This document shows, piece by piece, positions 7,232-62,617 of a stretch of 64,000 bases of DNA. How positions within the stretch are numbered: the first letter of the stretch is position 1; every line of letters begins with the position of its first letter. This DNA comes from Sphyrna mokarran. Taxonomy: Eukaryota. Below the pieces are notes generated by a model. That model had not been told where the DNA came from. It saw only the letters and a program-made list of their open reading frames with translations, and ran no database searches. Location of the stretch: the NCBI GenBank assembly GCA_024679065.1, contig JAGIQG010000008.1, positions 96,782,001-96,846,000 on the forward strand. Direction: 5' to 3'. The translations under genes were made by a program, and so were the position numbers.

Positions 7232-7384
7232 ATTTTCATCTTCAATCCCAGTGTTTTTGAGATATACAAAACCAATATCACGGAAGGCCCTTATGACCTC
7301 TGTGGATAATCGTTTCATTTCGATGGCTGATGGCTCAGTTTTTCCCAAACTAAATGAGCCAAAATCAACCACTTCAATGCTCAT
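7232..7384 (-). CDS. 2OG/Fe(II) dioxygenase (IPNS-like, DIOX_N domain), coding exon 1
   Basis: ATG at 7384; MSIEVVDFGSFSLGKTEPSAIEMKRLSTEVIRAFRDIGFVYLKNTGIEDEN has the DIOX_N pattern (VVDF...AFxxIGFVYLKNTGI); ends at donor GTATGT, phase 0. Confidence 0.9.
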
Positions 7385-7547
7385 CTTGTTCTAAGGATTC
7401 TGTCTTCTTCTGAGCTTTTAATAAATAAAAGTAGAATAAAATGATTTAAATAGAATTGGCTAAAAGTGAAAATTGAACTAAATTTGTTTAGGTTAATAAT
7501 TGAATTAACTCTAAATTCAACCAGACTTATAATAAATTTTTTTTTTT

Positions 7548-10500
7548 AAAGAGCAACACAGCACGGGAAACAGGCCCTTCGGCCCAACGAGCCCGCGCTG
7601 CCGTCATAATTATATAGTAGCAAATCCATTATCCTATTTTGTTATTCCTATATAATAATATATATATTATTCCTAATATGGAAAATTCTCACTATAGGGA
7701 CAATTTGTTTCCCAATCAGCCGAAGAGCGAATTTTTGGGTTGTGGGAGGAAACCGGAGTGCCCGGAGAAAACCCACGCAACCCCGGGGAGAACGCGCAAA
7801 CTCCCGCAGACACCGGCCCAATTCCAAGTGTCTGCACAGCCACATCGATAGTCTCTGAGCTGTCATGGTGTCCTTCAGATGGTCCACATAAAGCACTCAT
7901 TTACGACATGAAGTACCAGGCAACCCATGAATCAACATCCAAGAGCTGTCCTTGCACCACCTGCCGAATGCATGCTCCTTGATGGTCAAGTATGGACCGA
8001 ATTACCTGTGGAAAAAAAAGCCATAGTTAAACAGTCCTACTATATCCCTCAATCTGCATACCGCTCATGTGGCTGTCCAAGAGACCCTTAAACAGCCCTA
8101 GCGTGCCTGCTCCCACCACCTTACTCGGCAGTGCATTCCACACCCCCACTACCCTTTGTGTGAAAAACTGCCCTCTAATATTCGTCCTATACATAGACCC
8201 CCTCACCCTATGGCCATGACCCCTCGTCCTATCCATTTCTAAAGGCGGAAAAAGTTTACCTCCATTTACTCTATCTATACCCCTTATAATCTTATACACC
8301 TCTCTGAGATCCCCTCTAAGCCGACGTCTTTCAAGGGAAAACAACCCCAGTCTATCTAATCGTTCCTCATAAGACAGTCCTTCCATACCAGGCAGCATCC
8401 TGGTAAACCTCCTCTGCACTGTCTCCAAGGACTCCACATCCTTCCAATAGTACGGCAACCAGAACTGGGCGCAGTATTCCAAGTGAGGCCTAACCAAAGT
8501 TCTATACAACTGCAACATCAAACTCCTACTCTTGTATTCTATACCCTTTTCTATGAAAGCTAACATACTATACGCTTTCTTTATCACCTTCTCCACCTGT
8601 GAAGACACCTTCAGAGACTTGTGAACCTGCACTCCCAAGTCTCTCTGCGTCTCTATACTCCGAATAGTTTTACCTTTTATCCTATAACTCTTCTACATTT
8701 TTCCGGCCAAAATGCATCACCTCGCATTTATCCGGATTAAATTCCATTTGCCATCTATCTGCCCAGTCTACCAACCTGTCTATGTCCTGTTGTATTGCCT
8801 GACACTGCTCTTCTGTACCCGCCAATCCAAACATCTTGGTGTCATCAGCAAATTTGCTGATCTCACCACCTACCCCTACTTCCAAGTCGTTTATGTAGAC
8901 CACAAATAGAAGAGGACCTAGTACTGAGCCTTGTGGCACTCCACTAGTGACAGGCTTCCAGCGGGAAAAAGAGCCTTCCACTACTACCCTCTGTCTCCTC
9001 CTCCCGAGCCAGTTCTCGACCCATCTACATACCCGACCCTGTATCCCATGCGCCTTCACCTTCTCTCTCAGTCTACCATGAGGAACCTTGTCAAACGCCT
9101 TACTGAAATCCATGTAGACGACATCAACGGCTTGTCCTTCATCAACTGTTTTTGTCACCTCTTCAAAAAATTCCACTAGATTCGTAAGGCACGACCTCCC
9201 CTTAACGAAGCCATGCTGCGTATCCCTGATCAGATCGCAGCGCTCCAGATGCTCATACATCCTGTCCCTAAGGATCCTCTCCATTAGCTTACATATAACT
9301 GAAGTCAAGCTCACCGGCCTATAGTTCCCTGGGTGATCCCTCTGACCTTTTTTAAACAACGGTACTACGTTTGCTATCCTCCAGTCCTCTGGGACCTCAC
9401 CTGTGTCCAAGGAAGAGACAAAGATTTGCGTCAGAGGCCCAGCCAAGTCTTCCCTCAACGCCCTTAGCAGCCTGGGGTAAATGCCATCAGGCCCCGGAGC
9501 TTTATATGTCTTTAAGCTGCCTAACAGCCCCAACACCTCTTTCCTCGTAATCCTTATTTCCCTCAACCGATCCTCAACTTTGTCAACATCAGCACAGACA
9601 TCTGTCCAGTCTCCTGCGTGAATACCGACGCAAAGTATTCATTCAGGATCTCCCCCATTCCCTCAGGCTCTAAGCATAGATCCCTTCCTCTGTCCCTAAG
9701 AGGTCCAATCTTGCCTCTAACCATCCTTTTGCTCCTTACATAGGTGTAAAATGCCTTTGGATTTTCCTTAATCCTACCTGCCAGAGCCACCTCGTGGCCC
9801 CCTTTTGCCTTTCTAATACCCCTTTTAAGCTCCCATCTACACTCTCTATAAGCTTCCAGCGCTGTCTCAGTCCCTAGTTGCCTAGTTCTAATGTAAGCCT
9901 CTCGCTTCTTCCTGATCAAGTCCTCAATCTCCCTGGTAAGCCACGGTTCTCTAATCCTACCTTTCCCATCCTTTCTCCTTGCCGGCACATATCTTTCCTG
10001 CAGAGAGTTTAGTTTTCCCTTGAAAGACTCCCACATGTACCTCGTCGACCTGCCCTCAAAAAGCTTATCCCAGTCGGTATCTTTAAGATCTTGCCTAACC
10101 TGGCAGTATCTAGCCCTCCCCCAGTTAAATACCCTCCCTTTTGGGCCAGTCTCATCCTTTTCCATTAATATCCTAAAGCAGACAGAGTTGTGATCACTAT
10201 TTGACACCTGCTCTCCTACCTTGACGTCAACCACCTGGCCTGGCTCATTTCCCAGAACCAAATCCAGTATAGCCCCATCTCTAGTCGGGCCATCCACATT
10301 CTGCTCCAAGGACCCTTCCAAAACACACTGTACAAATTCCTCCCCGTCCACTCCTACAGCTCTGGGCACTCTCCAATCTACTCCAGGAAAATTGAAATCT
10401 CCCAATACTACTACCCTATTTTTCCTACACTTATCTAAAATGTCCCTGCATATCCCTTCTTCCACGGCCCGCGGGCTGTTGGGCGGTCTGTAGTAAACAC

Positions 10501-10828
10501 CCAACAGAGTAATCACTCCCTTCCTATTCCTCAACTCCACCCATAGAGACTCAATTCCTAAATCATCCATACCTCCCTCCCTCTGCACTGCTATGACGTT
10601 GTCCTTAACTAATAAAGCCACTCCCCCGCTCTCCTCACACCAACTCTGTCACGCCTAAAACACTTATACCCTGGAATATTCAATTGCCAGTCTTGCCCCT
10701 CCTTCAACCACGTCTCGGTCACCGCCACCACATCTAAACTCCTCGTGAACATTATTGCCTTCAGTTCATCTGTTTTTCCAGTCACACTCCTCGCATTAAA
10801 ACACATGCACTGAAGACCCTCAGCTCTC
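7548..10828 (-). mobile_element. CR1 LINE, near-complete ORF2 (APE endonuclease + RT) with a long 3' UTR containing a V-SINE
   Basis: ORF pieces 10609-10806, 9563-10621 (GDFN, SDH), 8682-9566 ([24 protein letters not shown]) and 8027-8638; three frameshifts; 3' tail gggccgaagggcctgtttc...tgctgt. Confidence 0.95.
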
Positions 10829-11659
10829 GGATATTGTTATTATAATAACAATTATAATATAATATAATAATAATAACAATAAATTGTTATTAAGTAGTAT
10901 GTGTGAGAAATTGGGCTCAGTACTATTTCTTTGTCGGGAAGTGTGAATGGCCTTGGAGATCGAAAATGATTTCTGTAACATGAATATTTACGTATGCCGT
11001 AAAACGCATGGAACATCATATTAGCGTAATTGATGGCATGTTGGCCTCTAAACTTCTTATCAGAGGTATGGAAAGCTGGAAGGTCATAACATCAATCAAC
11101 AGATAAAACTGACTCGACCCCTCTGCTCCCAACAAACACTCTCTCTTAACCTTACATACTGCTCATGTTCAGGAGCAGGAAGAATCCTTTATCAATGTTA
11201 TTTAAAATGATCAGTTACTCGTTGGTTAATAGCTGGTTGATTGCATCTGTTTATTGATAATTCTACAAATGTTTGGTGTGTTCCGCTGTTGTTTGGAGAT
11301 GCAAGAAGGTCCAGTGGGAGCAGTATGAGAGACCTTGAGAGGCATTTAGCTGACTTCAATATTTCTGCACAATCTAGCTATCATCAGACAAGGAGAATTA
11401 CTCAGCATTCTCCTTAGAATACAGGATGACTTAGAGAATGAACACATGCAATGCAGAACTGGACAAGCTTCTGGAAGAGGTTGGTGGAGGAGGATGTGGT
11501 AAGGATTGCAAACAGGAAACCATTTTTGCTGAGAGGTGTTGAGGAGCAATTCTATGACCTGACTCTCAATGAAGAACAATGGCTGGAATTCCCCATTCCA
11601 CCCCCCCCCCCGACCCTTTTCCCATTGGTGGGGCCAGAGAGCCATTGAAATCTCTGTTC

Positions 11660-26828: not shown

Positions 26829-27125
26829 GGGCAGCACAGTGACACAGTCATTAGCACTGCTGCCTCACAGCGTCCGGGACCCAAGTTCGATATCCAGTTT
26901 GCGTCACGGTCTATATGGAATCTGCACATTCTCCCTGTGTCTGCATGAGTTTCCTCTGGGTGCTAGGGTTTTCTCCCACAGTCTGAAAAGACATGCTGGT
27001 TAGATGCTAAATTCTCCCTCAGTGTACATAAACAGGCACCGACGAATGCAACTAGGGGGTTTTCACAGTAACTTCATTGCAGTGTTAATGTAAGTTTACT
27101 TGTGTTAAACTAATAAATAAACTTA
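26829..27125 (+). mobile_element. V-SINE with MER6-like tail
   Basis: tRNA-like head (ggcagcacagtgacacagtc...gttcgatatcc), V-domain (ctccctgtgtctgcatgagtttcctctggg), tail ttttcacagtaacttcattgcagtgttaatgtaag...aataaa. Confidence 0.8.
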
Positions 27126-53773: not shown

Positions 53774-54118
53774 GGGCATCACAGTGGCACAATGGTTAAC
53801 ATTGTTGACTCACAACACCAGGAACAGCTTTGGGTGACAGTGTGGAGTTTGTATGTTCTCCCTGTGTTGGCATGGGTTTCCTTCAGGTGACCTGGTTTCC
53901 TTACACAGTCCAAAGATGCACAAGGTAGGTGGAATGGCTGTACTAAATTGCCCTTAGTGTTCATTGATGTAGAGGTTAGAGGGATTAGTATGGTAAATGT
54001 GCATGTATATGGAATAGGCCTGAGGAGAGGGCCTGGATAAGATGCTCTTGTGGAGAGTCGGTGCAGATTCAATGGGCCAAATGTCCTCTTTCTGCACTAT
54101 AGGGTTTCTATGGTTCTG
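53774..54118 (+). mobile_element. HE1-type V-SINE with CR1/HER1-like tail
   Basis: Head gggcatcacagtggcacaatggtt, V-domain gtgtggagtttgtatgttctccctgtg..., tail atgggccaaatgtcctctttctgcactatagggtttctatg. Confidence 0.85.
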
Positions 54119-54969
54119 AGTGCTGCTGGAAATGCATTCTCCAGGCAAGTATTTGGCAAATCCCTGGCAACTCTTCAGGATGTACTTCATCACACTCTTG
54201 ACTTGTGGCTTTTACAAGATGGACAGAAGGTGTATTGCTTGCTACAGATTTGTCATGATTAGATTCTCTCTCGTTCGAATTGGTTTTAGTTTGTCACATG
54301 TGTGACATAAATGTTACTTGCTACTTATTGGTCCAAGCCTCAATTTTGTCCATGCCTCTTTTCACATTGATGTGGACTGCTTCATTATCATAATAATAAT
54401 GGAATGGAATTGTTTTGCAATGATCAGTGAATTTGTTTGTTTCTGATGTTATAATGGATAGTGTTGAAGATGGTTGGGCCTTGGCCACTGCCCACAGGAA
54501 CACTTGCATTGATGATATGGGATTGGAATGATTGACTTCCAAAAACCAAACCAATCATTCTTTATGCTGCAAATGACCAGTGAGAGTTTACCCCCAATCT
54601 TCATTGACTTGATTTTTTGAGGACTTCTCAGCCACACAGTCAAACAACCCAAATTATTCAGTAATCCCATCTCCATCAGTTTCTGAGGCAGAGAGTTCCA
54701 AAGCCACACAATCCTTTGACAAAAAAAAAATTCTCATCTTTGTCCCAAAAAGGAAACCCCTAACTTTATTAAGCAGGTCTTGCTAGTTCTGGACTCATCC
54801 ACAAGAGGAAACATCTTTTCCATGTGACCTTGTCAAGTCCATTCAGAGTCTTATTTCAATCAAGTCACTCCTCACTCTTCTAAAGTCCAGTGGAAATAAG
54901 CCCAATCTGTCTAATTTTTTCTCATTAGACAACCTGCTCATTCCAGGTATCAGGTAGATCTTTTCTGAC

Positions 54970-61173: not shown

Positions 61174-62617
61174 ATCTTCAGGGGCCTCAACTGTTTACCA
61201 TTTACATAGATGATGCGGAGGAGAGGGCTGAGAGTATGGTAGCAAAATTTGCTGATGACACGAAGATGAGTGGAAAAGCAAATTGCGTGGAAGGTGCGGA
61301 AAGTCTGCAGAGAGATCTGGATAGGCTGAGTGAGTGGGTGAGGACCTGGCAGATGGAGTACAATATTAGCAAATGTGAGATTATCCACTTTGGTAGAAAT
61401 AATAATAGGAGGGATTATTATTTAAAAGGCAAAAAGCTGCAGCGTGCTACGGTGCAGAGGGACCTGGGGGTCCTTGTGCACAAATTGCAAAAACCCAATC
61501 TGCAGGTGCAGCAGGTGATCAAGGAAGTGAATGGAATACAAAGAACAAAGAGCAACACAGCACAGGAAACAGGCCCTTCGGCCCAACGAGCCCGCGCCGC
61601 CGTCCTAATGTCTTAATGACATATAGGGACCAATCTAGGGAAAATTTGTTGCCCAATCAGCCTAAGAGCACATTTTTGAGATGTGGGAGGAAACCGGAGC
61701 ACCCGGAGAAAACCCACGCAACCACAGGGAGAACGCGCAAACTCCCGCAGACACAGGCCCAAATCCATGTGTCTGCACAGCAACAATGATAGTCTCTGAG
61801 CTGTCATGTTGCCCATCTGATGGTCCAGTTTAAGCATACACTAACGAGCACTAGGCCACTCCTGAAGCAACATTGAAGAGCAGCCCTCGCACGACCTGCC
61901 GAATGCATGGACCGAATAACCTGTGGAAACAAATAAGATATTTAGACAGTCCTGCTACATTCCTCTATCTGCAGACCGCTCATGTGGCCTTTATAGCGAG
62001 GGGGATAGAATATAAAAGTAGGGACGTCTTGCGGAAACTGTACAGGGTACTGGTGAGGCCACAACTGGAGTAATGTGTGCAGTTTTGGTCGCTGCATTTG
62101 CAGAAGGATATATTGGCCTTGGAGGGAGTGCAGACAAGGTTCACTAGGCTGATATCGGAAATGAGGGGGTTAGCCTATGAGGAGAGATTGAACAGACAGG
62201 GTCTGTACTTGTTGGATTTTAGAAGGGGGGATCTTATAGAGACAGATAAGATTCTGAAGGGGTTAAACTGTGTAGAGATAGAGAGATTCTTCCTGCTTAG
62301 AAAGGATAGCAGAACTAGAGGGCACAGCCTCAAAATAAGGGGGGAGGGGAGCAGTTTAGATCAGAGTTGAGGAGGAATTTCTTCACTCAAAGGGTGTGAG
62401 TCTCTGGAATTTTCTGGCCATTGAAGTGGTGGAGGCTACCTCGCTGAATATATTGAAGTCATGGTTAGATAGGTTTCTAATAGACAAGGGAATTAAGGGT
62501 TATGGGGAGAAAGCGGGAAAGTGGAACTGATCCACTTCAGATCAGCCATGATCTTGTTGAATGGTGGGGCAGGCTCGAAGGGCTAGATGGCTTACTCCTG
62601 CTCCTGTTTCTTATGTT
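61174..62617 (+). mobile_element. 5'-truncated CR1 interrupted by an antisense CR1 3' end
   Basis: GPQLFTIYIDD..KFADDTK, KEVNG|AFIARGIEYKS; tail ctcctgtttcttatgttc. Confidence 0.92.
61538..61988 (-). mobile_element. CR1 3' end with V-SINE-containing 3' UTR (second copy)
   Basis: Minus strand reads HMSGLQIEECSRTV* (compare HMSGMQIEGYSRTV* at 8027), followed by a UTR colinear with 7548-8026. Confidence 0.92.

Follow-up and report, generated by a model that had tools for sequence, protein, structure and literature searches.

The stretch of 64,000 nucleotides analyzed here, referred to as the window (Sphyrna mokarran, contig JAGIQG010000008.1, positions 96,782,001 to 96,846,000 of the forward strand), contains two CR1-type LINEs whose 3' untranslated regions (UTRs) resemble the body of a SINE, which raises the question of how a SINE came to lie within an autonomous LINE and what it may be doing there. 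The V-SINE HE1 and its partner LINE HER1 have been described from sharks and rays (PMC3747384), and PMC4824008 and PMC5786205 both regard the role of conserved SINE bodies, the V-domain among them, as unknown. Our comparisons confirmed a high-copy LINE that, judging from its sequence, has domesticated a V-SINE. In its older subfamilies, genomic copies give evidence that both ORFs were spliced out together.

Both window copies lie on the minus strand and, when re-read, showed the order of parts given by the original prediction, in which the end of ORF2 is followed by a spacer, then by a head of tRNA type and a V-domain, and last by a CR1 tail. The spacer, put at about 130-150 nt, measured 153 nt in copy 1 and 127 nt in copy 2. 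Copy 1 (7548-10822) is a CR1-type LINE of subfamily A that is 5'-truncated at the start of ORF2 and has full-length relatives of ~4.6 kb. Its ORF2 stop codon (8027-8029) is overlapped by a branch-like site which, followed by a T-rich tract and CAG, makes up a putative 3' splice acceptor (8006-8030). A last exon is predicted to start at 8005, and the homologous acceptor appears to have been used in seven spliced copies of C/D type. Downstream of it follow the structured part of the spacer (7881-7998, predicted to form a three-way junction and a long irregular hairpin), the remodelled tRNA-type SINE head (7805-7874, A-box altered and B-box deleted, with a hairpin inside at 7835-7806), the V-domain with the next 50 SINE-homologous nt (7695-7804, core 7804-7741), a variable middle (7603-7694) that is unalignable or 40-50% different between subfamilies, and a CR1 3' stem-loop tail of the subfamily A type (7537-7602) with a short A-run at its end (7537-7547). 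AT-rich palindromes were observed in the variable middle (7654-7671) and at the 5' junction of the copy (10823-10845). Copy 2 (61538-61988), a member of subfamily B, retains the last ~14 codons of ORF2 (stop 61944-61942), an acceptor whose AG ends at 61921, a structured spacer (61913-61822), the head (61814-61746), the V-domain (61745-61636) and a tail with a heptamer repeat (61601-61538). It lies antisense within another CR1, which it interrupts, and its flanks are unlike those of copy 1. The two copies are 79% identical over 379 nt and 95% identical over the 63-nt tail. Three other CR1 ends of the window entered the tree described below and carry no insert, as had been claimed for the other CR1s. 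A free V-SINE (53774-54122, plus strand) served as comparison seed and is called HE1-like after a table in PMC3747384, not from sequence comparison. Another free V-SINE (26829-27125, plus strand) differs from the one at 53774 in its 3' tail, which means that two or more types of V-SINE tail occur side by side.

Copies 1 and 2 represent subfamilies A and B of one CR1-type clade, in which the older subfamilies C and D dominate. All 40 scored matches to copy 1 had 98-100% identity, and the 30 loci fetched for it (window copy included) all continue into ORF2, with scattered 5' breakpoints and a common 3' end. Copy 2 returned at least 40 matches at 93-100% identity, and the ORF2 end was present in all 29 other loci; five loci of the copy 2 type (B) share flanks, in two groups (L034/L036 and L038/L045/L048). 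A sample of 120 evenly spaced 10-kb pieces (1.2 Mb) contained 26 insert-bearing copies (19 C-like, 3 A, 3 B2 and 1 B), ~310 free SINE matches and 20 ambiguous matches. Extrapolation gives ~60,000 insert-bearing copies (Poisson range ~39,000-88,000), and an exact 22-nt motif of subfamily C alone occurs 20,068 times in the genome (control, 0). With tens of thousands of copies, shared junctions and mostly different flanks, these are not merely two copies with common flanks or differing junctions, and segmental duplication as the origin of copies 1 and 2 was rejected. Among the 26 sampled copies, 14 reach the ORF2 end and only one starts at the head. The insert-bearing element therefore does not move as a Pol III SINE, and an independent Pol III SINE with a remodelled head was likewise rejected.

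Full-length members of subfamily A (~4.6 kb) encode an esterase-like ORF1 and an endonuclease-reverse transcriptase ORF2. Pfam RVT_1 and Exo_endo_phos_2 were above cut-off in ORF2 of a full-length relative, and ORF1 is a 314-aa frame with OSK above cut-off and Lipase_GDSL_2 just below it (E=4e-7). An ORF1 with an esterase (SGNH) domain is a feature of the CR1 clade, as are frequent 5' truncation and a 3' stem-loop that leads into a short tandem repeat. The insert-bearing LINE shows the truncation and the stem-loop, but its subfamilies vary in what follows the stem-loop. Subfamilies B and C end in a heptamer repeat and most A copies in an A-run of 7-11 nt, a recent change of tail type in subfamily A; several A copies end in other short repeats (window 7537-7547, L001-L030). 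The 5' UTR of subfamily A (L202, L205 and others) contains tandem monomers of 182-183 nt, each with a TATA box at its end, ~25-30 nt before the start of the next monomer. These tandem monomers resemble the monomer promoters of mouse L1. Contigs of a second organism bear a B/C-type head allele.

In a tree of 99 ORF2 ends, built from 3' ends of elements of one genome (sample, window and 11 added loci), all 17 insert-bearing ends were monophyletic with a support of 0.99. Their clade is nested among short-UTR CR1s, and the nearest sister LINEs have only ~25-45 nt between stop and tail. V-SINEs are known from bivalves and cnidarians (PMC4824008). Nesting, the tRNA-type head and this wider occurrence of V-SINEs together argue for the direction from SINE to LINE, and support the earlier view that the LINE captured the SINE. 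A CR1-type LINE clade would once have captured a V-SINE into its 3' UTR, with a splice acceptor and a predicted folded RNA before it, perhaps through a template switch or recombination.

The captured parts are still recognizable. A V-domain of ~80 nt is present in the LINE insert, and its core is ~86-89% identical to a free SINE consensus built from 104 copies, which bears out its description as well preserved; compared by eye, it also agrees with 19 of the 20 positions of the reverse primer published for BivaV-SINE2. Over SINE nt 1-57, the head has 30-34 matching positions. In an ungapped scan, the first 50-60 nt of the SINE consensus scored best exactly at the head start in A, B and C, with 0-3 of 1000 shuffles as good when transitions were weighted and 0-44 of 1000 by plain identity. 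Weak results came from a gapped test without anchoring (1110, 133 and 58 of 3000) and from a head HMM, which reached only E=0.29. ARAGORN found no tRNA. The head is tRNA-derived without working A and B boxes, the A-box being altered and the B-box region deleted; where a replacement of the B-box by a hairpin had been proposed, there is instead a 19-nt gap. The hairpin itself is present, with the U-G pair in one copy and A-U in the other that had been noticed, and another of its pairs is C-G in A/B, U-G in C and U-A in D.

The head had also been regarded as decayed and proved to be conserved. It diverges by 13% between C and A and by 6% between C and B, and the V core and the tail each diverge by 6% and 3% in the same comparisons, against 32% (C vs A) and 30% (C vs B) at fourfold sites of ORF2 (Fisher p 0.012 to 2e-5). 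The middle that follows the V-domain is ~50% different between subfamilies. Measured in this way, head, V core and tail are under constraint. A protein-coding last exon was considered and rejected: the open frame that A and B have in common across head and V is shifted in C, and stops follow the acceptor in all of them.

The spacer is, according to the folding models, a conserved structured RNA behind a 3' splice acceptor. Its divergence of 17-30% is near the fourfold rate, with no significant difference. The spacer of copy 1 folds with z -4.3 (0 of 200 shuffles), and the alignment of spacer and head from six subfamily rows with z -6.6 and 7 both-side changes (3 of 300 shuffles). When each was folded alone, the free SINE and subfamilies A-D gave an identical five-helix layout in which the 5' end of the head is predicted to pair with the V-domain. 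Head and V are predicted to keep the fold of the free SINE. For this fold, a structure taken from the free SINE alone kept 30-32 of 40 pairs (36-440 of 5000 null draws), which is moderately above chance, and its both-side changes were not significant; strong support is confined to a structure fitted jointly to all rows, a partly circular procedure. Derivation of the spacer from the SINE was rejected, as the two did not align significantly in one direction or the other (47-436 of 500 shuffles scored equally well). No Rfam family reached its gathering score in the spacer region, where miRNA and lncRNA matches were at chance level only, and the spacer had no other match within the 1.2-Mb sample.

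At the upstream edge of the spacer, the T-rich tract and YAG/G are kept in five lineages (A, B, B2, C and D). By pyrimidine content, the acceptor had the highest rank in the window copy, in C and in D, whereas three other A copies placed it second to fourth. A stricter preset pyrimidine rule missed it in B, in C and in each of the four A copies. The 25 nt before the acceptor are 28-48% different, so that there is no more than a suggestion of selection on it. A search of C copies for foreign sequence just before the exon gave 77 matches (control, 3), of which the 40 nearest-acceptor junctions were examined. Most of these are simple truncations. In two copies the 5' end of the element is joined at a textbook donor, in a third the join is at a weak GT lying 9 nt upstream, and in a fourth ORF2 is joined one base away from a donor-like site. 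A targeted junction search found seven copies (control, 0), in which a textbook donor ~45 nt from the element's 5' end is joined exactly to the acceptor behind the ORF2 stop. The seven have different flanks, complete last exons and normal tails, and hence the GT/AG-bounded deletion, dispersal and intact 3' tail that characterize spliced copies of the SpIRE type. A single clade of these copies was rejected against 14 unspliced rows (AU p=0.006). As they are not one clade, it is likely that ORF1 and ORF2 were spliced out together, in a single intron, on more than one occasion, and this putative intron would be ~4 kb long with both ORFs inside. A C-related 5' end (L131) shows the donor in its unspliced state, and the donor has 26 exact genome matches; L131, whose 3' end lies outside the locus, is connected with the insert through its ORF2 (88% similar to C) and through the spliced copies. 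Given seven junction copies against 20,068 unspliced acceptor matches, spliced RNA was rarely the template.

No target-site duplication match longer than 6 nt was found at the spliced copies. All of them are C/D-type, and no spliced copies of A or B were found. In subfamily A, none of eight motif matches joined a 5'-UTR donor to the exon, and none of 30 matches to the 5' end was spliced (29 continue into ORF1, and the deletion in the remaining one does not coincide with the splice sites). The donor used in the junction copies has been lost in 31 of 33 subfamily A monomers. A combined A/B junction search was dominated by antisense tails of other elements among the 100 of 310 matches listed. Four sets of RNA contigs, compared with the part of an A copy that lies between 5' end and head, gave no donor-acceptor joint among the 15 of 36 listed, although contigs cannot show that a spliced joint is absent. 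One A copy (L178) has ORF2 joined exactly at the acceptor via a weak GT, possibly a cryptic splice. The minus strand of L131 has an acceptor-like site that follows the first donor by only ~45 nt, a distance probably too short for a normal intron. Strong donor motifs were also seen just before weak ORF1 matches in other CR1-like 5' ends (L097, L124, L245 and L290), which suggests that 5'-UTR donors are general in these LINEs.

The reading we favor, at a probability of roughly 0.58, is that the folded captured module helps the LINE transcript in cis and that splicing is an occasional side route. The V-domain stays constrained after loss of the Pol III promoter and within a LINE transcript, which points to a role at the RNA level. 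The module would have been conserved because its folded RNA aids the transcript in cis, with selection mainly on the fold through stability, export or particle assembly. The junction copies would be reverse-transcribed spliced RNAs of ~0.5 kb, without ORF1 and ORF2, mobilized in trans through the tail, and splicing would be a minor side route that lowers the output of the element. A more far-reaching reading, possible but doubtful, makes the entire LINE coding region a regulated intron: a single promoter would have two alternative products, the full mobile RNA and a spliced, structured RNA of 0.5 kb made from the domesticated V-SINE. The V-domain, folded as RNA and paired with the tRNA-type head, would then serve retrotransposition without depending on Pol III transcription.

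It is unlikely that splicing is itself the selected function, by which the element would regulate itself via a short non-coding RNA (a decoy for ORF2 protein or a hairpin precursor of small RNAs) with the module as its working part. On the one hand, the acceptor was kept in five lineages though the sequence just upstream is deleted or replaced in A/B and B2, subfamily A has two other textbook donors (in 29 of 29 and 28 of 29 copies), and splicing recurred in several subfamilies. On the other hand, spliced copies are few, with none for A, no junction appeared among the listed RNA-contig joints, and the donors may predate the capture, as donor-like motifs also precede weak ORF1-like matches of other CR1s. 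Quite improbable is a neutral passenger that looks alike across subfamilies because they have swapped parts of their 3' UTRs with one another or with the free SINE. Free SINEs are very abundant (~310 matches in 1.2 Mb), and template switching is known for SINE and LINE parts (PMC5786205, PMC4824008), but conservation is patchy (head, V and tail conserved, middle unalignable), the subfamilies have V-core differences from the free SINE in common, and the spacer shows covariation. We give very little credence to a module that works at the DNA level, be it as enhancer, insulator or antisense promoter: there are cases in which a conserved SINE body was exapted for gene regulation as DNA (discussion of PMC5786205), yet both-side and wobble changes in the present element point to single-strand pairing.

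There is also only a slim chance that the seven junction copies stem from microhomology-guided template jumps during reverse transcription and not from splicing. The junction carries 3 nt of microhomology, the 40 copies examined include the weak GT 9 nt upstream and the ORF2 join one base off, and the search that yielded the seven copies was aimed at exactly that junction. However, two of the four internal joins in the untargeted set fall at the same textbook donor, the scanned 5.5 kb (nested insert included) has ~129 sites with the same trinucleotide and only 6 donor-like sites, and the exact point is common to seven independent insertions. Finally, an origin of the V-domain in the LINE's UTR, from which the SINE would have been derived, has a precedent in LINEs that gave rise to SINE tails and some SINE middles (PMC5786205), but is already largely refuted by the nesting among short-UTR CR1s, the tRNA-type head and the V-SINEs of bivalves and cnidarians.

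No description of this structure of a LINE with a V-SINE was found in the literature searched, and the excerpts of bioRxiv 2025.02.02.635956 and PMC13295347 contained nothing on LINEs capturing SINEs. The element is like HE1/HER1 in its tRNA-type head, V-domain, CR1-type 3' stem-loop tail and similar host (PMC3747384), and unlike them in that head and V lie inside an autonomous LINE, the B-box is gone and 5' truncation is scattered; the comparison with HER1 is one of descriptions, not of sequences. The junction copies are comparable to human L1 SpIREs (PMC5860796) as rare retrotransposed spliced LINE RNAs that are likely dead ends. SpIREs splice within the 5' UTR or into ORF1 (PMC5860796), whereas here the intron would span both ORFs, the acceptor was acquired along with the captured 3' module, and what results looks like a bipartite non-autonomous element. 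ORF-less bipartite LINEs made by internal deletion have been reported for RTE, Ingi, Vingi and R2 (PMC5786205), and they too join a 5' end to a 3' end without ORFs; in contrast, our copies are CR1-type, have a GT-AG join and show no amplification as a family. Exonised zebrafish HE1 SINEs likewise place HE1-type sequence inside spliced exons, but there, in host genes, the splice sites used are within the SINE (PMC2911107), whereas the acceptor described here lies ~130 nt before the head, in sequence without a significant SINE match in either direction.

The V-domain here sits in an autonomous, directly assayable element for which near-identical young copies and short-UTR sister LINEs are natural controls, and the spliced copies point to a route to ORF-less bipartite elements by splicing. 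BovB LINEs carry SINE pieces at their ends and are another case of a LINE that takes up a SINE, although they belong to the RTE clade and are not known to have a constrained SINE body or a splice acceptor. Splice sites are also known from zebrafish LINEs. Present in tens of thousands across the genome, the acceptors could change the transcripts of host genes. In the window itself, a 2-oxoglutarate/Fe(II) dioxygenase-like gene has its probable first coding exon at 7232-7414 on the minus strand (DIOX_N E=2e-5, just under cut-off). Copy 1 has the same orientation and lies ~125 nt before the acceptor of that exon, so the LINE acceptor could compete with it.
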